A stretch of 64,000 nucleotides of DNA from an uncultured bacterium (GTDB lineage Bacteria > Patescibacteriota > Minisyncoccia > Phycocordibacterales > PALSA-1337). This document shows, in pieces, positions 7,933 through 16,049 of the stretch; position 1 is the first letter of the stretch, and every line of letters begins with the position of its first letter. The stretch is taken from positions 737,953 to 801,952 of the forward strand of contig OY969557.1 in assembly GCA_963701025.1 (NCBI GenBank). Reading direction: 5' to 3'. Position numbers and translations under genes: made by a program. The notes beneath the pieces were generated by a model, which searched no databases, was not told the origin of the DNA, and saw only the letters and a list, made by a program, of their open reading frames with translations.

Positions 7933-8409
7933 ATGTATCTAAATAAAGCATTGATCATAGGAAACCTCACCCGCGACCCGGAGGTGAAGGCCCTGCCTTC
8001 GGGCAACAAGGTCTGCACCTTCAGTCTGGCAACGAATCGCAATTACAAGGACAAGGACGGCAACCGCCAAGAGTCTGCCGAGTTCCACAATATAGTCGTC
8101 TTCGGACGCACCGCCGAGCTCGTGGGCCAGTATCTGAAGAAGGGCTCGCAGGCATGCGTCGAAGGACGCCTCCAGACCCGTTCATGGGATGACAAGCAGA
8201 CCGGAGCTAAAAAGTACCGCACCGAGATCGTGGCCGAGACCGTGCAGTTCGGCAACCGGCCGGGAGCGGGCGCGTCATCTGGAGCATCTGCCGCAGGAGC
8301 TTCGGGCAAAGGCCCCGAGGAAGTCTCGGGAGACGCCGGTCCTGGCGAGAAAGGCGACAAGATAGAATATCCGCAGGAAGAGATCAATCCTGACGACATA
8401 CCTTTCTAG
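7933..8409 (+). CDS. ssb: Single-stranded DNA-binding protein
   Basis: An OB-fold core 'LIGNLTRDPEV...FSLATNR' and the acidic C-terminal tail ending 'DDIPF'. Confidence 0.9.
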   Translation: MYLNKALIIGNLTRDPEVKALPSGNKVCTFSLATNRNYKDKDGNRQESAEFHNIVVFGRTAELVGQYLKKGSQACVEGRLQTRSWDDKQTGAKKYRTEIVAETVQFGNRPGAGASSGASAAGASGKGPEEVSGDAGPGEKGDKIEYPQEEINPDDIPF

Positions 8410-8457
8410 CCACTCTTATCATTCGGACATTATCATTAGATTCGCATTATAACCATC

Positions 8458-8661
8458 ATGAAAAAGCAATGCTACTTTTCACAGCATAATATCAGGCACA
8501 TCGACTACAAGGACACGGAGCTCCTGAAGAAATTCATCAACCCGCACGGCCGCATGATTGCCCGGAAGCGCACCGGCATCAGCGCAAAATACCAGCGTCA
8601 GCTGGCCGCCGCCGTCAAGCGCGCCAGATTCATGGGGCTCCTGCCGTATGTCGCGAGCTAG
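8458..8661 (+). CDS. rpsR: 30S ribosomal protein S18
   Basis: '[13 protein letters not shown]...[10 protein letters not shown]...[19 protein letters not shown]' is the S18 signature. Confidence 0.9.
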
Positions 8662-9233
8662 TAGTTGTTTACTCTCTCACGATATTCCCCGGTCTCCGTG
8701 TTGATCCTGATAACGTCGCCCTCGTTGACGAATAGAGGAACGTTGATGGTGGCGCCGTTCTCCAGAGTGACCGTCTTTGATCCGCCGGTCACCGTGTCGC
8801 CCTTCACGGCCGGCTGTGCTTCGGTCACCTTGAGGTCGGCGGTTATCGGCAGGCGGAATCCCATAGGCTGGTCTTTGAAGAGGAATTGGCCGACGACGGT
8901 GTTCGGTTTCAGGAATTTTCCTTGCGGTCCGACCTGTTCCTCGGTCACCTTGAAGCGCTTTGACGGATCTTCCGCTTCGGCGAACCACCACTCGCCGCGG
9001 TTGTTATAGAGGTATTTTACTTCTCTCTCCTCGATCTCTGCCTCTTCTACCTTGTCGGAAACATGGAATGAGTATTCCGTGACTTTGCCGGTCATGAGAT
9101 TCTTCAGCTTTGTGGCATTGACCGGCTTGCGCTGCTGTTTGCGGAAAACGTGGGCGGATATGACCTCGTACGGAGTGCCATCCATGACGATGTATTTCTT
9201 CTCGGTGATGTCGCTGTATTCGAGGAGGGACAT
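8658..9233 (-). CDS. efp: Elongation factor P
   Basis: The conserved C-terminal block '[45 protein letters not shown]' matches EF-P domain III. Confidence 0.9.
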
Positions 9234-9303
9234 GAGGAATTGGTTATTGTCCGCCGGTTGGCGGATTGATAATTAAGGATTGGCCTAGTCTATAGGGTTT
9301 TCG

Positions 9304-9347
9304 GGGAAAAAGCAAAAAAGAGACGGTGTCTTTTAGTCTACCGTCTC
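9304..9347 (-). terminator. Rho-independent terminator (minus strand) downstream of the small ORF
   Basis: The hairpin agagacggtgtctttt...accgtctct is followed by a T-run on the minus strand (the '+' strand reads ggaaaaagcaaaaaag). Confidence 0.6.
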
Positions 9348-9359
9348 TGGTGTTCAAAT

Positions 9360-9557
9360 TCATTGGCCACCTCTTTGTTGCTCGATTTCTCGAAGCAAAG
9401 CAAGCGCTCGGTCACTTGTTTCGACGGTCATGGTTCTTTTAGTCGCCGTGTTAAACGCGCTTGATGGTATATGGCATGAAAATCCCGAGCCGTCTGGATG
9501 ATGGTCGTCGTAATGGCCGCTGTGATAAAGTGCTTCTGGTGCTAATGATCTTTTCAT
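9360..9557 (-). CDS. Small hypothetical His-rich protein (65 aa)
   Basis: A strong Shine-Dalgarno 'AAAGAGGAG' lies 4-5 nt upstream of the ATG. The gene has its own terminators up- and downstream. The product is His-rich ('HSGHYDDHHPDG'). Confidence 0.4.
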   Translation of the reverse strand: MKRSLAPEALYHSGHYDDHHPDGSGFSCHIPSSAFNTATKRTMTVETSDRALALLREIEQQRGGQ

Positions 9558-9600
9558 AACTCCTCTTTCGTTGTTTATCTCAATGATAACATATTAATCA

Positions 9601-9630
9601 TAAAGCAAAAACCCGCCGAAGCGTGGTTTT
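9601..9630 (-). terminator. Rho-independent terminator (minus strand) ending the recA transcript and its 3' structured region
   Basis: The hairpin aaaacccgccgaagcgtggtttt is followed by a T-run on the minus strand. Confidence 0.5.
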
Positions 9631-9872
9631 GCTGGATGTACCATCGTGGACGGTCCCTTCCTCGTCAGTTGTGCTACAAATGTACTCTTGTGGAGTTGTA
9701 AAGTCAAGTCAAAGAGTCATCTTGGTACTTGAGGACAATCGCTTCACCCTGTGGACCTTACGGGAGTCGAATCCGCACACCCTAGCTGACGAGGAAGGAT
9801 GCCAAACCACTTGGAAGGCCCACAGGCAAAAGCGATCATCCAGTGATGACCGACTTTTGTTGTAAACTGCGA

Positions 9873-10967
9873 TTACTCCTTCAACTTCGCCTTTATCTGT
9901 TTCAGTATCTCATTCCTGACGGGTGCATTCTCCTTGAGGAATTGCCTTGTAGCATCATATCCTCGGCCGAGCTTAACATCGCCATAGGCATATGAAGATC
10001 CTGACTTCTGAAGGATCTCATACTTTTCGCCCAGGGCGATGATCTCGCCTTCTTGGCTGATGCCTTCGTTGTACATGAGGTCGAATTCGGTCTGGCGGAA
10101 CGGCGCGGCTACTTTGTTCTTGACCACTTTGACGCGGACGCGGCCACCCATGACCTCGTCGCCTTTCTTTATCTGGGCTATGCGACGGATGTCGAGGCGG
10201 ACGGATGCGTAGAACTTGAGAGCCTTGCCGCCAGGGGTGGTTTCTGGATTGCCGAACATGACGCCTATCTGCATGCGAATCTGATTGATGAATATAACTA
10301 TGGTCTTGGATTTGGCGACGATAGCGGTCAACTTGCGCAGTGCCTGGGACATGAGGCGGGCTTGAGTACCGACATGAAAGGCACCCATGTCACCCTCTAT
10401 TTCAGCCCGTGGCGTTAGCGCCGCCACAGAGTCGATAACCACCACATCCATCTTGCCGGTCCTGATGAGGCTGTCTACTATTTCGAGTGCTTGTTCGCCC
10501 GCATCCGGCTGGGAAATGAGCAGCTCATCGACTTTCACGCCGAGGCGTTTGGCATATTCCGGATCCATAGCGTGCTCGGCGTCTATGTAGGCGCAGACGC
10601 CGCCGAGCTTTTGGGCTTCGGCGACAACATGCAAAGCGAGAGTCGTCTTGCCGGATGATTCTGGCCCGAATATTTCGATGATACGGCCACGAGGCATACC
10701 ACCGATGCCGAGCGCGGCATCCAATCCTAGCGAGCCCGTCGGCACCGCGTCTACGCCGACTTTCGGCTTATCGCCGAGCTTCATGATCGACTCATCGCCG
10801 AACTTCGTGCGGATGGCGTCTATGGCGTCGGCTATGCCGCCGGAAGTGCCCTTCATCTTTGTCGCGGCTCTCTCGGCTTTTTCAGCCTTTTCCGCGGCCT
10901 CTTCTTTCGCTTGATTCTCTTTCTCCTCTTCTAAGCGAGGATTCTTCACTTTTTTGGTAATAGACAT
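9873..10967 (-). CDS. recA: Recombinase RecA. The N-terminal KE-rich extension may or may not be translated.
   Basis: Walker A '[12 protein letters not shown]', the L1/L2 loop regions and 'IDSVAAL' are present. An internal Met at about 10856 would give a canonical-length RecA. Confidence 0.9.
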
Positions 10968-11030
10968 ATCTTTCTAACAGTTTGGGTGATGATAATACAG
11001 GCAGTAGGGGTATTGTAGCATGAAAAATCC

Positions 11031-11321
11031 TTACTCTCTAAACTGCATATAATCTGTCACTATTTCGATGATCTTTTGTACAGTATTGTTACAGTTTTTG
11101 AAATGAATCTTCTCCAAGACATCAGCGCCATAATGTCTAATCAATTGGCTAATGAGAGCATGGATGAATGATTGTGTAGTTGAATCAACACCGTCAAAGT
11201 CGAGTTCCACATCCTCGCCTTTTTTCAGGGTAGGGTTTATTTTTTTTATGCGTATATTTTTCGCTTTATCTTTATTCTCAGCGAAAGACCCTGTAACCAG
11301 TTTTAATTTTATTGTTATCAT
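11031..11321 (-). CDS. DUF4325 / STAS-like domain protein (internal-Met start of the listed 143-aa ORF)
   Basis: 'VELDFDGVDSTTQSFIHALISQL' resembles the STAS-like DUF4325 signature. The ATG overlaps the stop of the upstream GHKL gene (ATGA at 11318-11321). Confidence 0.5.
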   Translation of the reverse strand: MITIKLKLVTGSFAENKDKAKNIRIKKINPTLKKGEDVELDFDGVDSTTQSFIHALISQLIRHYGADVLEKIHFKNCNNTVQKIIEIVTDYMQFRE

Positions 11322-12286
11322 GTGAATTTTGGTTTTCTGTATTTTTCTTTGCGTCTCTCTCTTATAGAGGTAGAGTACGTCTTGCGGATAAGATCTAACA
11401 GTATCGAGAATTCTTTGGTGTTGTCGAGGGCAATATCGATTCCGACAACAGTCCCGTTCCAATAGGGAAGGGCTTTCTCTTTGGAGTGTCTATCATCAAT
11501 GGGGTCTGATTGTAAGGTTATATCTTTTTCAGGGGACCTTTTCAGTAATTTATACATTGCTTTACCGCTATATATTAAAAAGAAATCTCGGTTTACATGT
11601 GCTATTGATTTGATGAAAAAAAGCCCAGCTCCAGCATTTTCCGCCGTGCCACCTTCCTTTTTTGTTGTACCTGTTATACCTGGCATTAGAGCAAGCCTGA
11701 TGGCTTCGAAGTCGTCCATAGCAGCATGGGACTGAGTAATCGTCTTTTTGATACCTACTCCTCCGTCGACGATTCCGATTCGAATGGTATTGCTTTTCTT
11801 ATAATATTGAGCACAGACTATAGCCCCGTCTCTCGCTTGAGAATGTTCGATCACGTTTCTTACCAGTTCACCAACGATATATTGTATAGGTTGTGCTTGT
11901 TTAGGATTATCTATCAGATGCAAAAGAGGGATCATCTCAGTAAGGAATTTGCTTTGTTGGGTAGAGTTCTTAATTCGTGTCAGGGGGATGAAGCGTCCCG
12001 AAGAATCGTGCCTTGTTATCGAGATACCTGAATCTATACCTAAAAACTTGAATAAGCCTATTCTTTCGAAGTAGTGCTTTGATCTTGCCTCAAAAGCCTT
12101 GAACGTGAGCTTATTCGGAGAAATATTTTTACCAAGTGCCGCAACCATCGCTATGACCATCGGATGCACTGATACCCACTTATTATTTGAACTGATAATT
12201 AATTCATCTGGCCTAGACGGATCAAAACTCCTTAAAAAAGGGTCTATGTTACCTAAGAAGGCACTATTTGGTAAATGTATTTTCAC
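11318..12286 (-). CDS. GHKL-superfamily (histidine-kinase-like) ATPase with extra N- and C-terminal regions; GTG start
   Basis: Bergerat-fold motifs are present: N box 'ELVRNVIEHS', G1 'IVDGGVGI', G2 'NAGAGLFF'. The start codon reads GTG on the minus strand. Confidence 0.55.
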   Translation of the reverse strand: MKIHLPNSAFLGNIDPFLRSFDPSRPDELIISSNNKWVSVHPMVIAMVAALGKNISPNKLTFKAFEARSKHYFERIGLFKFLGIDSGISITRHDSSGRFIPLTRIKNSTQQSKFLTEMIPLLHLIDNPKQAQPIQYIVGELVRNVIEHSQARDGAIVCAQYYKKSNTIRIGIVDGGVGIKKTITQSHAAMDDFEAIRLALMPGITGTTKKEGGTAENAGAGLFFIKSIAHVNRDFFLIYSGKAMYKLLKRSPEKDITLQSDPIDDRHSKEKALPYWNGTVVGIDIALDNTKEFSILLDLIRKTYSTSIRERRKEKYRKPKFT

Positions 12287-12296
12287 AACCGAATAT

Positions 12297-12340
12297 TACC
12301 GGGAATTTGATTTTTATGCAAATAATGATAATTCCCGGTA
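12297..12340. promoter_or_regulatory. 10-bp perfect inverted repeat (ACCGGGAATT ... AATTCCCGGT) with a 22-nt spacer, 11 nt upstream of the GHKL ATPase start
   Basis: Seen directly in the sequence. Either an operator-like site or a 5' UTR hairpin. Confidence 0.4.
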
Positions 12341-12404
12341 GGAAATAAGGATTTTTTGACAAAAGATGCTGAATAATATAAGGATTATGTCATCATTCGA
12401 TCCT

Positions 12405-12764
12405 CTAAATCACCCCCACCAGCTCCAACTCCTTTTTAGTTTCGCGCCCGAATTGGTCATGCGCGTCAAAGGTCAAGATGTTCACTCCCGGAAAGACTAT
12501 GAGCGTCTCGCTAAAATTACCGGCCTGGTCGATGAAGACAGTCTTGCCGTTCAGTGAAAGGGAATTGACCCGTAATGCCTGGCCGATGATCTTCACGGTG
12601 GAAGTGGCTACGGCGGAACCGTTCAAAGGCTGGAAGATATTGATAGCCGGACCGCGGGCGTAGGAGAACGAACGCCAGATAGCATAAGCGATGATGATGA
12701 CAGCGACGAGGAAGATGGCCGCAATGCGGATCATTTTCAAGGTCTTTGTGCGGCTATTGAACAT
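12405..12764 (-). CDS. Hypothetical membrane-anchored protein
   Basis: An N-terminal TM helix 'IAAIFLVAVIIIAYAIW' followed by a ~90-aa beta-rich domain. No family recognised. Confidence 0.4.
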   Translation of the reverse strand: MFNSRTKTLKMIRIAAIFLVAVIIIAYAIWRSFSYARGPAINIFQPLNGSAVATSTVKIIGQALRVNSLSLNGKTVFIDQAGNFSETLIVFPGVNILTFDAHDQFGRETKKELELVGVI

Positions 12765-12865
12765 GGGAAGAGAATTTCTAATTAATCTAATTACCTAATT
12801 GACCTAAGAAAATCCCAATTAGGAATGATTGAAGCTTGGTGATTTCTTAGAAATTAAAAATTAGG

Positions 12866-15241
12866 TTAATTAGGAATTTCTTCATCAGTGCCTTCGCTTG
12901 CCTCTGTTGGACCGCCCTGCTCCACGCCTGTTCCAACCCCTATAACCTCTCTCGGTTTTGACCCATTAGCTGGCCCTATGACGCCGCGCTCTTCGAGCAT
13001 GTCCATGAGCTTGGCCGCTCGGGAATAGCCGACACCGAGCTTGCGTTGGATGTATGAAGTAGAGGCCTTGCCTGCGGCCGTGACGGCTTCGCGGGCTGAC
13101 TCGTACATATCATCATCTTCATCGAGGCTGTCGTTGTCGAGACCCATGTCCGCGCTAAAAGCAGAAGTGCCTCCAGGCTCTGAACCGGCCGTAGGCGCGC
13201 TCAAAGTGATCTCGCTCATGATCTCGTCCTTGTATTGGTCGTGGAGGAATTTGACCACGCGCTTGACCTCGGACTCGGAGATGAAAGCGGATTGGAGACG
13301 CACCGGTTTGGACATTTCGCCGCCCAGGTAGAGCATGTCGCCGGCACCGAGGAGCTTCTCCGCCCCAGGCTGGTCGAGAATAGTGCGCGAGTCTATCTGC
13401 GAGGCTACCTGGAGGGCCACACGGGACGGTATGTTTGCTTTAATCAGACCGGTGATGACGTTCACACTCGGACGCTGTGTAGAGATGATGAGGTGTATGC
13501 CTACGGCTCGGCTCATCTGGGCCAAGCGGACGATAGCGGATTCCAGCTCGCGCGGATAAGCTGACATGATATCAGCTAACTCGTCGATGACGACGATGAT
13601 GTAGGGCATAGTCTCAGGAAGAGAGGGTGTAGGGTTTAGGGTATAGTCCGCTTTTTTCTCTACCCTATACCCTATACCCTTTTTATACTTCTCTACTGCT
13701 GGTGCCAGCACGCTCTTGTGATACGACTCGATATCGCGGGCTGAATTTCTCTCCAGGACGTCATATCGGCGGCTCATCTCTTTGCCGGCCCATTTTAGGG
13801 CTAGAATGGCCTTCTTTGGGTCGGTGATGACAGGCGTCAAGAGATGCGGGATCTTGTTATATAGGGTGAGCTCGACGCGTTTAGGATCTATCATGATGAA
13901 GCGCAGATTCTCCGGCGAATTCCGGTAGAGCAGGGAAGTGATGAGAGAATGTATGGAGACAGATTTGCCCGAACCGGTGGCACCGGCGATGAGAGTGTGC
14001 GGTGCCTTGGCCAGGTTGGAGAAATGGGCTCGTCCGGTGATGTCCTTGCCTAAGGACATGAGAAGAGGCTTCTCCGACTCCTGGAAATCGGGTGAAGCGA
14101 GGAGGGTGGCCAGGCCGACGGTCGTCTTGGCGGTATTCGGCACTTCTATGCCGACGAGGGATTTGCCGGGGATGGGCGCTTCGATGCGGATCGGGTGCGC
14201 GGCGAGCGACAGGGCAAGATCGTTGTTGAGCGCCACGATCCTCGAGAGCTTGACGCCTTCGGCGGGCTTCAGAGCGTAGCGGGTGACGGACGGGCCGATG
14301 GATATCTCATCCATCTCCACGGTGATGCCGAAATTCTGGAGAGTCCGCTTGATGATATTGGCATTGGCCTTGATGTCGCCGGTCTCCGGTTTGCCTCGAT
14401 CTTTCTCGAGGAGGGACAAGGGCGGGGGAGTGAACGGCTTCAAAAGCGGCACCTGGACGGCCGCGGCCATGCCTGCCGGCAGGCTGGCGAAAGCACCTTC
14501 TTCTTCGTCGCCGAAGTCCATTTTTTGGGTCTTTTTCGCTTTAACGGAGTCTATTTGTTTTGCGCCTCCTCCTTTCTCCTTTCTCCCTGCTTCCTGTTCC
14601 TCTGCCGCCGCCACGGCCTCCTCGACCATAGCTTCTTCGTCTTCATCCATCTCCGCGTCCCGTCCTTTCATTCCTTTATTCCTCCCTTCCCCTATTCCTT
14701 TTCCGAACCACTTCCAGAATTTCAACTGTTCGGCGGTGATATGCATCTCGAATAGGATGAATACCGACGCTATTATCAGAACGACGAGAAGGGCCGTAGT
14801 CGCCCAGACATCCATGATCTTGACCAGGGGCGCTCCCACCCAACGGCCGAATACGCCTCCCGCCCGGCCGCCAGCGATGCCGAAGAGTATATCGGCCACA
14901 TATATAAGACCGAGTGCGGACAGGAAAAAGACGATGGCACCCACGGTCTTGGAAAGCTTGAATCTTTTCTCCATGCCATGGAGGAGGGCGATGCCGATCA
15001 TGGCGAAGACGAGCGGGATGAGGAAATAGCCTATGCCGAAGAATCTGGTGAAGAAAAGATACCCATAAGCGCCGAGCGGACCGGCCAAGTCACTGCCGTC
15101 GCCGCGATGGAAAGCGGCCAGAAGGGAAATGAGAGTGATAAGGAATGAGAATATGGCCAATACCGCCTGGACCGTCTCGTCTCTCATTTCGCGCCAGAAT
15201 TTCGCCTTTTCGACGATGTCAGAGTCTTTTTTCTTTGCCAT
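12866..15241 (-). CDS. ftsK: DNA translocase FtsK/SpoIIIE, starting at the internal Met 'MAKKKDSD'
   Basis: The N-terminal TM segments, Walker A 'GATGSGKS', Walker B 'IVVIDELAD', 'TQRPSVNVITG' and the C-terminal gamma domain are present. The longer 15421 start would run through a terminator hairpin at 15314-15343, so the 15241 ATG is preferred. Confidence 0.85.
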   Translation of the reverse strand: MAKKKDSDIVEKAKFWREMRDETVQAVLAIFSFLITLISLLAAFHRGDGSDLAGPLGAYGYLFFTRFFGIGYFLIPLVFAMIGIALLHGMEKRFKLSKTVGAIVFFLSALGLIYVADILFGIAGGRAGGVFGRWVGAPLVKIMDVWATTALLVVLIIASVFILFEMHITAEQLKFWKWFGKGIGEGRNKGMKGRDAEMDEDEEAMVEEAVAAAEEQEAGRKEKGGGAKQIDSVKAKKTQKMDFGDEEEGAFASLPAGMAAAVQVPLLKPFTPPPLSLLEKDRGKPETGDIKANANIIKRTLQNFGITVEMDEISIGPSVTRYALKPAEGVKLSRIVALNNDLALSLAAHPIRIEAPIPGKSLVGIEVPNTAKTTVGLATLLASPDFQESEKPLLMSLGKDITGRAHFSNLAKAPHTLIAGATGSGKSVSIHSLITSLLYRNSPENLRFIMIDPKRVELTLYNKIPHLLTPVITDPKKAILALKWAGKEMSRRYDVLERNSARDIESYHKSVLAPAVEKYKKGIGYRVEKKADYTLNPTPSLPETMPYIIVVIDELADIMSAYPRELESAIVRLAQMSRAVGIHLIISTQRPSVNVITGLIKANIPSRVALQVASQIDSRTILDQPGAEKLLGAGDMLYLGGEMSKPVRLQSAFISESEVKRVVKFLHDQYKDEIMSEITLSAPTAGSEPGGTSAFSADMGLDNDSLDEDDDMYESAREAVTAAGKASTSYIQRKLGVGYSRAAKLMDMLEERGVIGPANGSKPREVIGVGTGVEQGGPTEASEGTDEEIPN
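13622..13680. repeat. G-tract palindromic repeat element (copy A), lying in-frame inside ftsK
   Basis: The left arm GGGTGTAGGGTTTAGGGTATAG and the right arm CTACCCTATACCCTATACCC are inverted. The pair encodes 'GIGYRV...TLNPTP' within a variable loop of the FtsK motor domain. Confidence 0.6.
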
Positions 15242-15305
15242 GATGGGATTGTGTTTGAATATTATGCGGTAATAATAACATTTGGCCGTTTTTTCTGCTT
15301 GGAGA

Positions 15306-15348
15306 GTAAAACAAAATACCGTAACCAGTTGGCTACGGTATTTTGCTA
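15306..15348. terminator. Hairpin terminator between the NYN gene (minus strand) and the ftsK promoter region
   Basis: A 13-bp stem aaataccgtaacc/ggctacggtattt flanked by A/T runs; it reads as a terminator on the minus strand. Confidence 0.5.
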
Positions 15349-15485
15349 AGGCTTGCGAACCCGGTTGGAACCCTTCCTTGCTAGTACTACAATTATAATC
15401 TGCCGATATTTCGGAAGTCAAGTCTTGACTTTTTGCTTACGACACGCTAGGATATGCGTATTACGACGAAAGAGGTTCCGAACGG

Positions 15486-15914
15486 CTAACTGCCTAAGGA
15501 GCCTTTTTCATTTCCCTCTATCTTGGCCCGGATATCAACAGAATCTAAAGCATCGAAATAAGCCGCTCCGATCTTTTTATACAAAGAAGATGCTCTGTCC
15601 CGATCAGGAAATAGCATCTTTGCAAATCTCTTTTCCTCGATCAGAAAATCAACCACCAGTTTGTAATCACCATCTCCAGATACTATAACGACCTTCTCAA
15701 AATTCTCCTTTTTGTACATTTTCTTCATTATATGAAAAATGATATCGGAATCTACATTGCCTTTCTTTTTTCCAATCATTGCAGGGTTGTGCTCACGAAA
15801 AATCAGCACAAAACCTGCATTTTGGATTTCCTCATACAACTCCTGATTTGTTTCCTGCACATAGCCCAAGAAATAATACGCCTTGTCGACAGCGTATTTT
15901 TCCTTGAGATACAC
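15486..15914 (-). CDS. NYN-domain (LabA-like) ribonuclease. The N-terminus may be longer than annotated.
   Basis: 'KGNVDSDIIFHI...VVIVSGDGDY' matches the NYN/PIN-like signature. The upstream frame stays open, so the start is uncertain. Confidence 0.55.
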   Translation of the reverse strand: MYLKEKYAVDKAYYFLGYVQETNQELYEEIQNAGFVLIFREHNPAMIGKKKGNVDSDIIFHIMKKMYKKENFEKVVIVSGDGDYKLVVDFLIEEKRFAKMLFPDRDRASSLYKKIGAAYFDALDSVDIRAKIEGNEKGSLGS

Positions 15915-16049
15915 ACGAAATCTCGCAAGATTGATTCCGTATGTTCAAATATGTCACGGACAAAGGCGATAAAGAAACGATGAAGATTTCACAGGCGCTT
16001 GCAATGCGTCAGCTTTGTCCTATAATGGAATCGTTTAAGACATGCCAAT

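Follow-up and report, generated by a model that had tools for sequence, protein, structure and literature searches.

The two overlapping genes lying between a small ORF and recA in the window (the whole stretch of 64,000 nucleotides that was analysed) constitute, with a probability of roughly 0.55, a minimal kinase-STAS switch of the CapK/VapK-CapS/VapS family, which is self-repressed, triggered by stress and toxin-antitoxin-like in its behaviour. Kinase-STAS switches were recently shown to sense DNA damage and to control bacterial immunity (PMC13373217). The published forms have an obvious output part, either a repressor domain or a PIN toxin, which is missing in the present cassette: it contains no PIN toxin, no HTH or wHTH and no downstream operon. 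The cassette would represent a third, minimal form of the family, and the target of the pair would reveal what the core kinase-STAS module does by itself.

The CapK/CapS and VapKSC systems were described by Chambers et al. (EMBO J 2026, PMC13373217). CapK phosphorylates CapS upon ssDNA binding and, following DNA damage, the pair de-represses the downstream operon (PMC13373217). VapKSC protects against a phage, and the C-terminal helix of VapS (residues 94-116) blocks VapC (PMC13373217); the VapS-VapC structure is available as PDB 9z7o. In both kinases, the STAS domain provides an aromatic residue that stacks on the ssDNA, W68 in CapK and F54 in VapK (PMC13373217). The preliminary description had presented the module as uncharacterised. 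This no longer applies to its kind, as CapK/CapS and VapK/VapS/VapC were described in 2026 and the two proteins studied here, A and B, are remote homologues of VapK and VapS.

The cassette measures about 1.33 kb and comprises the promoter with its operators, gene A and gene B. It is a foreign insertion of two genes, with a GC content of 0.36-0.43 against 0.52-0.60 in the flanks; the housekeeping surroundings noted earlier are those of the insertion site. At least 448 species-level genomes, from uncultured Bacteria and Archaea, contain the A/B pair, and 80 species-level loci (60-84% identical) were examined in detail. A survey of the co-occurrence of the two families had been proposed: B is placed directly downstream of A in 79 of the 80 loci, the contig of the 80th ending there, and single-chain A-B fusions exist in the same order. 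The genes and the adjoining site are the following:

Positions 11318-12286, minus strand: gene A, 322 aa, GTG start.
Positions 11031-11321, minus strand: gene B, 96 aa, ATG start, a single STAS domain (DUF4325).
Positions 11318-11321, minus strand: ATGA stop/start overlap of A and B, translational coupling.
Positions 11012-11040, minus strand: recA promoter-like site, TAGAGA-17-TGcTACAAT, which overlaps the end of B and is outside the cassette.

Both ORFs and the shared ATGA of the preliminary description were confirmed, and the overlap (ATGA/GTGA) is kept in 74 of 79 loci. The GTG start of A is correct, given the family-wide conservation of residues 1-42 (MKIHLPNSAFLGN...); automatic gene callers shorten A to 280 aa. 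A search for a hidden third gene retrieved no other frame open for at least 50 codons in 80% of the loci.

Protein A has three segments:

A residues 1-125: STAS-like domain, with W37, H41-P42 and G97-R-F-I-P.
A residues 128-287: SpoIIAB-like GHKL domain, with E140, N144, D174xGxG178, G219xG221 and G278-T279.
A residues 290-322: helix and basic tail ending in RKPKFT.

Protein A combines a STAS-like domain with a SpoIIAB-like GHKL kinase in which the ATP-binding residues are all intact. The ATP-binding motifs quoted in the preliminary description are present, and E140/N144 (N box), D174-G176-G178 (G1) and G219-G221 (G2) are invariant in 62 homologues. In Pfam, A yields only sub-threshold HATPase_c_2/HATPase_c matches (E about 3e-5), with no match for its N-terminal 127 aa or its C-terminal 72 aa. 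The model of A opens with a beta-strand of the STAS-like domain, and the predicted structure resembles SpoIIAB with a probability of 0.96-1.0 and TM-scores of 0.60-0.63. The preliminary description named assignment of the protein to a sensor kinase lacking the DHp domain as a refuting outcome; its STAS-like plus SpoIIAB-like organization is not that of a truncated sensor kinase.

The sequence of A points to a VapK/CapK-like kinase, remotely homologous to VapK. The VapK-like kinase encoded in a Deinococcus HTH/kinase/DUF4325/PIN operon is retrieved by BLASTP with an E-value of 3e-11, and hhalign relates A residues 10-253, covering both domains, to this Deinococcus kinase with a probability of 97.3% (E 2e-11). 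The identity shared with a VapK-like protein is only 25%. The N-domain of the Deinococcus protein matches Pfam STAS. W37 of A, which aligns with W53 of the Deinococcus protein (BLASTP), is invariant in 62 close homologues; this invariance is limited to the close subfamily, as the counterpart in more distant relatives is W/Y/F or absent. The basic tail of A was considered as a DNA binder and rejected: fused relatives lack it, and the tail may instead dock B.

Protein B is the cognate one-domain STAS partner of A, and is VapS-like in sequence. The assignment to DUF4325 made earlier is supported by Pfam (E 1.7e-17), which places the VapS-like proteins in the same family. The B family profile has as its top PDB match 9z7o_A, 'Escherichia VapS' (E 0.0017), and hhalign gives 52% for the comparison with a Deinococcus VapS-like protein, the similarity between B and VapS being remote. 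PDB searches with the single A and B sequences returned no matches, and VapS was reached only through the B profile. The predicted structure of B (pLDDT 94.5) resembles RsbS, the SLC26 STAS domains and SpoIIAA. The segment T49-Q50-S51-F52 at the start of helix alpha2 is invariant, as is the stripe Q50/H54/S58/R62, with T49 and S51 conserved in all 44 sequences and T49 forming the helix N-cap in the model. The alignments place the phospho-serine S48 of VapS and the Ser of the Deinococcus VapS opposite the invariant Gln50, with T49 and S51 one position off. The final helix of B (79-94) is part of the STAS fold and the protein ends at residue 96 as a bare STAS domain.

The cassette resembles VapKSC in its kinase, composed of STAS-like and GHKL domains with homology spanning both, in the DUF4325 STAS gene placed directly after the kinase gene, whose product has VapS as the top PDB match of its profile, and in an operon devoid of a phosphatase gene. 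On the other hand, it differs from VapKSC in several features. There is no VapC/PIN gene directly downstream of B, where no VapC-like ORF was found in 79 loci; B lacks the C-terminal helix of VapS; A bears an extra C-terminal helix and basic tail; and the cassette has its own conserved operators, a probably leaderless design and an occurrence in Archaea.

Related units are also found as parts of larger proteins. In the PADLOC profile PDLC02567 'DrmA' (1750 positions), A matches positions 31-248 and B positions 316-389, and in the phage family phrog_5816 they match 158-325 and 350-436, respectively. These consecutive matches indicate that the kinase-STAS unit exists as a fused front end. The cassette differs from the DISARM DrmA in that the pair stands alone, with neither a helicase core nor another effector.

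The fusion of a relative of the module to a DISARM-type helicase, together with the basic C-terminal tail of A, could suggest that A is a nucleic-acid GHKL ATPase of the MutL, MORC or Topo VI-B type rather than a protein kinase, with B in a clamp or regulatory role. Foldseek indeed gives its best E-values for Topo VI-B (1e-4), and Gln50 of B occupies the position of the canonical phospho-site in the alignments. However, Topo VI-B yields poor TM-scores (0.18-0.28), whereas the match to SpoIIAB extends over nearly all of that protein (TM 0.6). The N box of A, ExxxNxxxH, is kinase-like in the authors' reading of the alignment, A lacks the S5/transducer domain and its homology to VapK runs through both domains. 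An ATPase of this type is considered unlikely, and the kinase reading of A is retained.

The promoter region contains the following elements:

Positions 12330-12340, minus strand: left half-site of operator 1, TACCGGGAATT, just upstream of the -35 box.
Positions 12316-12322, minus strand: -35-like box TTTGCAT, with TTGCAT at 12316-12321; TTGACA or TTGCAA in relatives.
Positions 12297-12307, minus strand: right half-site of operator 2, AATTCCCGGTA, in the promoter spacer and overlapping the -10 box.
Positions 12293-12298, minus strand: -10 box TAATAT, separated by 17 nt from the preceding TTGCAT and by 6 nt from the GTG start that follows.

The preliminary description reported a perfect 10-bp inverted repeat ahead of the genes. 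The perfect repeat is real, with an estimated chance expectation of about 0.02 in 2 kb, but it measures 11 nt (22 nt between its arms) and is not a single element. Its arms are the outer halves of two operators of the type TACCGGGAWTCCCGGTA and bracket the -35 box, with the left arm belonging to operator 1 and the right arm to operator 2. In most relatives, operator 1 is a full 17-bp palindrome, TACCGGGAWTCCCGGTA. Across the 80 related loci, the 160 nt preceding A show a 68-fold enrichment of the half-site ACC[GA]GGA / TCC[CT]GGT (0.0178 vs 0.00026 per nt). The cassette appears to carry a strong promoter of its own, whose two TACCGGGAWTCCCGGTA sites lie just ahead of the -35 box and in the spacer, the latter site overlapping the -10 box.

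The TTGACA-like/17-18/TAnnnT arrangement is found in 53 of 57 bacterial loci, the window included. The -35 box is a perfect TTGACA in 35 of these 53, the bacterial pattern being TTGACA-17/18-TATAAT, and the -10 box is 5-11 nt from the start codon in 47 bacterial loci. A TATA box accompanies all 24 archaeal loci, 23 of which have it 29-32 nt upstream. Only 4 of 79 loci show a Shine-Dalgarno-like motif ahead of A. This geometry suggests a leaderless or nearly leaderless mRNA in both domains. In archaeal hosts, the promoter sequence appears to have been exchanged for the TATA-box type while the operator sites were kept. A known RNA element in the leader was also considered and rejected, since Rfam gave no match at E up to 1 and the promoter geometry places the repeats upstream of the transcript.

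The cassette shares with CapK-CapS the pairing of a kinase with a STAS substrate, a role that B would have by analogy, as well as palindromic sites at its own promoter. As in CapKS, the half-sites occur at two spacings, narrow and wide; in the cassette these are full 17-bp palindromes and, in the window, outer half-sites 35 nt apart. Unlike CapK and CapS, A has no N-terminal HTH and B no wHTH; the operators also differ, ACCGGGA in the cassette vs TTAA in CapK-CapS. Pfam gave no match to an HTH family in either A or B, and neither has a recognisable DNA-binding domain. Finally, no immune operon follows the cassette, which in 80 loci is accompanied by unrelated housekeeping genes.

In the window, the gene downstream of the cassette is recA. 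By analogy with the de-repression of the downstream operon by CapK/CapS upon DNA damage (PMC13373217), read-through from the de-repressed promoter could place recA under a DNA-damage-responsive control in this genome. The two cassette genes and recA share a strand, 63 nt separate B from recA and no terminator-like site was found in 10800-12900. However, none of the 80 other loci has recA next to the cassette, and about 75 syntenic relatives have recA with the cassette absent. The recA gene keeps its own promoter-like site, which is also retained in a relative devoid of the cassette, no operator exists between B and recA, and B lacks a wHTH. Such a control of recA is very unlikely. A general functional link to recA or ftsK was likewise rejected, ftsK being adjacent in one locus.

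The pair always stands alone among unrelated housekeeping genes in the 80 loci, with no shared neighbour within 4.5 kb. The 143 nearest neighbours match 172 Pfam families, no family occurring in more than four neighbours and PIN in only two. The cassette was not in defence islands in this survey.

The fold of its proteins relates the cassette to SpoIIAB/SpoIIAA and RsbW/RsbV, with which it shares the GHKL kinase fold, the STAS fold and an invariant Ser/Thr at the N-terminus of alpha2. The preliminary description recognized this kinase/STAS partner logic and the lack of a sigma factor or PP2C phosphatase nearby, and both statements hold. A classical partner-switching pair controlling an alternative sigma factor encoded elsewhere would be compatible with the match of the A and B folds to SpoIIAB and SpoIIAA/RsbS, but it is highly improbable. 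Inspection by eye of the ORFs in 8000-16000 revealed no apparent sigma factor, PP2C or PIN protein, neither a sigma factor nor PP2C is a recurrent neighbour in the 80 loci, and A has a STAS-like domain that is absent from anti-sigma factors. In addition, a cassette about 65% identical occurs behind TATA-box promoters in Archaea, from which, to our knowledge, sigma factors are absent.

The distribution of the cassette is patchy. Its tree mixes phyla and contains one archaeal clade, and one MAG carries two copies (L016 and L055). One close relative retains a deletion scar with only a promoter/operator remnant. The sequences suggest transfer of the cassette across distant lineages, always as an isolated pair, and also its loss, with a scar left behind. 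In these respects the cassette recalls type II toxin-antitoxin systems, as a behavioural analogy only: two small overlapping genes, palindromic operators in their own strong promoter, patchy horizontal spread across Bacteria and Archaea, a changing gene context and genomes with more than one copy. It differs from them in having no known toxin fold and no HTH, RHH or AbrB domain in A or B.

A purely selfish addiction or 'hitch-hiker' cassette, maintained by horizontal transfer and tight self-repression with neither host benefit nor a specific stress signal, would account for the patchy cross-domain distribution, the lack of conserved context, the double copy, the strong self-contained promoter and operator and the ease of loss. 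Three observations make it unlikely. The archaeal and bacterial copies are about 65% identical in both proteins with the catalytic residues intact, which argues for strong selection on a function. The GC content of the cassette has drifted toward that of the host (r = 0.89), which suggests long residence. Also, no mobility gene or terminal repeats explaining the spread were found; an 11-nt inverted repeat that brackets the cassette in the window was not seen in the closest copy, L008. Searches with A by tblastn against INPHARED phages and PLSDB plasmids retrieved nothing, and a pattern scan of IMG/VR did not find the cassette. The operator palindrome occurs in 29 IMG/VR contigs, none with a kinase-STAS gene nearby, and this search was uninformative; several of the matches are terminators made of a GC-hairpin plus a T-run.

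For the favoured kinase-STAS switch, the following mechanism can be proposed. At rest, a repressor containing A and/or B would occupy the two sites and keep the promoter off. A stress signal would activate A; by homology to CapK/VapK, this is possibly ssDNA from damage or phage replication, which A might bind close to W37, in the space between its two domains. Subsequently, A would phosphorylate B at the N-terminus of helix alpha2, with T49 or S51 as candidate sites. The phosphorylation would break the resting complex, de-repress the cassette and free the active partner. In a cassette of two genes, the role of effector would have to fall to A or B, which would act on something common to Bacteria and Archaea. 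The favoured behaviour is toxin-antitoxin or abortive-infection-like, with growth arrest upon activation.

Several observations count against this proposal. A and B have no recognisable DNA-binding domain although the operators are conserved, the position of VapS S48 is Gln50 in B, and the invariance of W37 is limited to the close subfamily. There is no toxin-like domain, the context is housekeeping, and searches of cultured phages, plasmids and IMG/VR did not retrieve the cassette. Finally, loss of the cassette is tolerated and the similarity of B to VapS is remote.

A more far-reaching version of the proposal is tentative. In it, the cassette would be a complete two-protein immune or addiction device of a novel type, the kinase-STAS complex a sequence-specific repressor with no classical DNA-binding fold, A or B the effector and the target one shared by Bacteria and Archaea, with a low need for host functions. 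This low need would be reflected in a first gene that is probably leaderless, re-initiation at the second gene and operators supplied by the cassette itself, and only the core promoter would have been exchanged, a TATA box taking the place of the sigma-70 type, in the passage from one domain to the other.

The cassette is, as far as found, the first indication that the kinase-STAS family is widespread in Archaea and in tiny-genome CPR/DPANN organisms. With its operator sequence and its candidate residues (N144 and W37 in A, T49/S51 in B), it is directly testable. It also offers a natural experiment on transfer between Bacteria and Archaea, in which the core promoter was replaced while the operators, the putative leaderless start and the stop/start coupling were kept.

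The overlapping gene pair of the preliminary description is real, and its reading as a GHKL ATPase with a STAS-like partner is essentially right. The genes, designated A and B, lie as described between recA and ftsK, flanked by recA and by the small gene orf119.

9873..10967: recA, one flank of the A/B pair
11031..11321 (minus strand): gene B, 96 aa
11318..12286 (minus strand): gene A, 322 aa, GTG start
11318-11321 (minus strand): A/B overlap, ATGA
12297-12340: perfect inverted repeat TACCGGGAATT-N22-AATTCCCGGTA with 11-nt arms, ending 10 nt upstream of the GTG
12405..12764 (minus strand): orf119, 119 aa, Glucodextran_B-like domain, the other flank, adjoining ftsK

The GC content of the pair is 0.36-0.43, against 0.52-0.60 in the flanks on both sides. 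Public gene calls for the genome of the window (L198:642-1484) shorten A to 280 aa, starting at Met43; the GTG start was presumably missed due to the absence of a ribosome-binding site. Family alignments show that the longer form is the correct one.

Protein B belongs to DUF4325, as first proposed (Pfam, E 1.7e-17). Its model (pLDDT 94.5) is a bare STAS fold that matches RsbS, the STAS domains of SLC26 and SpoIIAA. For A, Pfam returns only sub-threshold HATPase_c_2/HATPase_c matches at residues 128-229, and the AlphaFold model (pLDDT 79, pTM 0.85) has three parts.

Residues 1-125: N-terminal alpha/beta domain
Residues 128-287: GHKL domain
Residues 290-314: long C-terminal helix, followed by a basic tail

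The assignment of A to the Bergerat-fold GHKL proteins holds. This part matches the structure of the anti-sigma kinase SpoIIAB (probability 0.96-1.0, TM 0.60-0.63) and, with a lower TM, Topo VI-B, and the ATP-binding residues E140, N144, D174, G176, G178, G219, G221 and G278 vary little or not at all, including in relatives at 28-50% identity. The basic tail, in which F321 is nearly invariant, is absent from fused relatives. The preliminary description suggested looking for a phosphorylatable Ser/Thr in B; T49 and S51, at the start of helix alpha2, are both invariant. Neither protein has a recognisable DNA-binding domain, and no effector is identifiable in the cassette formed by the two genes and their upstream region.

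Homologues of A of about 320 aa number in the thousands, and a scan with one genome per species found A in at least 448 genomes. The best 80 copies among these share 60-84% identity. Their bacterial hosts are Saccharibacteria and other CPR, Elusimicrobiota, Omnitrophota, Proteobacteria, Planctomycetia, Nitrospirales, Chlamydiae and Actinobacteria; the archaeal hosts are Nano-, Woese-, Aenigm- and Micrarchaeota, Methanosarcinales and Thermoplasmata. One Elusimicrobiota MAG (DATLSD01) holds two diverged cassette copies (L016 and L055) in a single genome bin. The co-occurrence of the two families is borne out, as B directly follows A in 79 of the 80 loci, the contig of the last one ending at that point, and the 4-nt ATGA/GTGA overlap is conserved in 74/79. 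Single-chain relatives, about 400-424 aa long, carry the kinase part ahead of DUF4325, and P0364, P0367, P0373, P0378 and P0389 are genuine fusions. On the other hand, P0253 (451 aa), with an out-of-frame Arg-rich stretch between its A-like and B-like parts, looks like an artificial fusion caused by a frameshift or sequencing error. A and B also match consecutive parts of the PADLOC model DrmA (31-248 and 316-389 of 1750 positions) and of phrog_5816. No flanking gene family is common to the 80 loci, the largest being present in 6. The nearest neighbours (n=143) match 172 Pfam families, mostly housekeeping and none more than four times, with no recurrent integrase or transposase among them. No further conserved open reading frame was found within the cassette when all frames were compared across loci. 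Together, these observations indicate that A and B act as a unit that requires nothing else in cis.

Two related systems, CapK/CapS and VapKSC, were described by Chambers et al. (EMBO J 2026; PMC13373217). On activation by ssDNA, CapK (HTH-STAS-GHKL) phosphorylates CapS (STAS-wHTH); the latter is a repressor acting on palindromes at its own promoter and at a downstream immune operon. VapK (STAS-GHKL) is proposed to phosphorylate VapS, a STAS domain plus a C-terminal helix, freeing the PIN toxin VapC, and the operon protects against one phage (PMC13373217). The best PDB match of the B-family profile is 'Escherichia VapS' (9z7o_A, E 0.0017, B residues 4-90). With a VapS fragment as query, an operon on a Deinococcus plasmid was found that encodes an HTH protein, a 300-aa ATP-binding protein whose N-domain matches Pfam STAS, a 121-aa DUF4325 protein and a PIN protein. 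Both domains of A align with the 300-aa kinase (25% identity in BLASTP, E 3e-11; 97.3% in hhalign, E 2e-11), and B aligns more weakly with the DUF4325 protein (52% in hhalign, E 1.5e-4). These matches argue that A and B are remote homologues of VapK and VapS. The output parts that define the two systems are missing. No VapC-like PIN gene accompanies the cassette, either among the window ORFs of 8000-16000 or directly downstream of B in 79 loci. B ends at residue 96, ahead of the inhibitory helix of VapS. A carries about 35 additional residues at its C-terminus, ending in the basic tail. In contrast to CapK/CapS, domain searches and models reveal neither the HTH of the kinase nor the wHTH of the STAS protein, and the neighbourhoods of the 80 loci contain no downstream operon. 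Its ancestry places the cassette in the CapKS/VapKSC family as a third and minimal branch; in behaviour it resembles a type II toxin-antitoxin module. It stands out for its minimal composition and for its spread across domains with promoter replacement.

The inverted repeat upstream of A had been taken as one palindrome with 10-bp arms. It is perfect and present, but its arms measure 11 nt and are halves of two putative operator sites.

12293-12298: TAATAT, 6 nt before the GTG
12297-12307: right half of site 2, one arm of the repeat
12316-12322: TTTGCAT, bracketed by the two half-sites
12330-12340: left half of site 1, the other arm of the repeat

L008, the copy closest to that of the window, shares this reduced layout. 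With the upstream regions aligned at the start codon of A, the bacterial arrangement is [TACCGGGAWTCCCGGTA] - TTGACA - [TACCGGGAWTCCCGGTA]TAAT - 6-10 nt - ATG. Relative to the rest of the loci, the 160 nt preceding A are enriched 68-fold in the half-site. In 53/57 bacterial loci (the window included) a TTGACA-like box is followed, after a spacer of 17-18 nt, by TAnnnT; the distance from the end of the -10 box to the start codon is 5-11 nt (mode 6) in 47 of those 53. Archaeal loci combine the same sites with a different promoter: one full palindrome - about 10 nt - TTTATAAAT - about 12 nt - half-site ATTCCCGGTA - 2-6 nt - ATG, the TATA box starting 29-32 nt before the ATG in 23/24. Both geometries imply a putatively leaderless mRNA. 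A Shine-Dalgarno-like motif precedes A in only 4/79 loci. Read in this way, the 'palindrome' represents two putative operators within a portable promoter. Since the sites accompany the cassette across hosts with different transcription machineries, their reader is most likely encoded by the cassette itself. The 17-bp palindrome TACCGGGAWTCCCGGTA also occurs in 29 IMG/VR viral contigs (L169-L197), with no kinase-STAS genes nearby; several occurrences resemble hairpin terminators, and L174, L190 and L197 have two copies 27-29 nt apart.

At the sequence level, the kinase-STAS pair has intact ATP-binding residues, translational coupling, autonomy and horizontal spread, and the cassette brings its own promoter, in which two palindromic sites are conserved. 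A plausible mechanism is that the promoter is self-repressed until a stress signal, probably ssDNA, activates A. Subsequently, B would be phosphorylated at T49 or S51, leading to de-repression and setting free an activity that resides in A or B. The weakest points are the lack of a recognisable DNA-binding domain and of an identifiable effector, and the alignment of the VapS phospho-serine with the invariant Q50 of B, one residue off T49/S51. As to ssDNA as the signal, W37 of A aligns with the aromatic residue implicated in PMC13373217, but the conservation of W37 does not extend to distant relatives.

In a neighbour-joining tree of A+B, the copies from archaeal hosts group as a single clade within the bacterial ones; Elusimicrobia largely cluster and the remaining phyla are intermixed. 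Neighbouring genes, for example those of ribosomal protein S8e, CGI-121 and TrmB, are evidence that the hosts are truly archaeal. Two more copies in archaeal context, at 50-54% identity, likewise consist of the two genes, and one of them retains the palindrome and TATA box. Cassette GC follows host GC (r = 0.89), on average 5 points lower. The DNA similarity between the window and L008 begins about 75-80 nt ahead of the start codon and runs to the stop codon of B, and the two cassettes occupy different chromosomal sites. An 11-nt inverted repeat (AAAAATCCTTA / TAAGGATTTTT, window 11023-11033 and 12346-12356) flanks the entire cassette; L008 shows no such repeat, which could be chance or an insertion remnant.

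The order ftsK-orf119-recA-efp, with orf119 in place, is kept in about 75 of 80 metagenomic relatives of the recA of the window, and the cassette is absent from all of these. The closest relative, L089 (RecA 94% identical), preserves the promoter/operator region of the cassette over about 70 nt, at about 93% identity, joined to the last 12 or so nt of B and the promoter of recA.

L089:1088-1819: a different inserted gene, for a cyclodipeptide synthase, beside the scar (Pfam CDPS, E 5e-15), in the orf119-recA gap
L089:1950-2040: promoter/operator scar of the lost cassette, same gap

This scar indicates that the common ancestor of both lineages carried the cassette and that one of them subsequently lost the coding part by deletion. 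The orf119-recA gap looks like an insertion hot spot. Beside ftsK, a second low-GC patch (0.38-0.42) of the window contains a 142-aa NYN-domain ORF (15486-15914, minus strand; Pfam NYN, E 7e-8), probably another foreign insertion.
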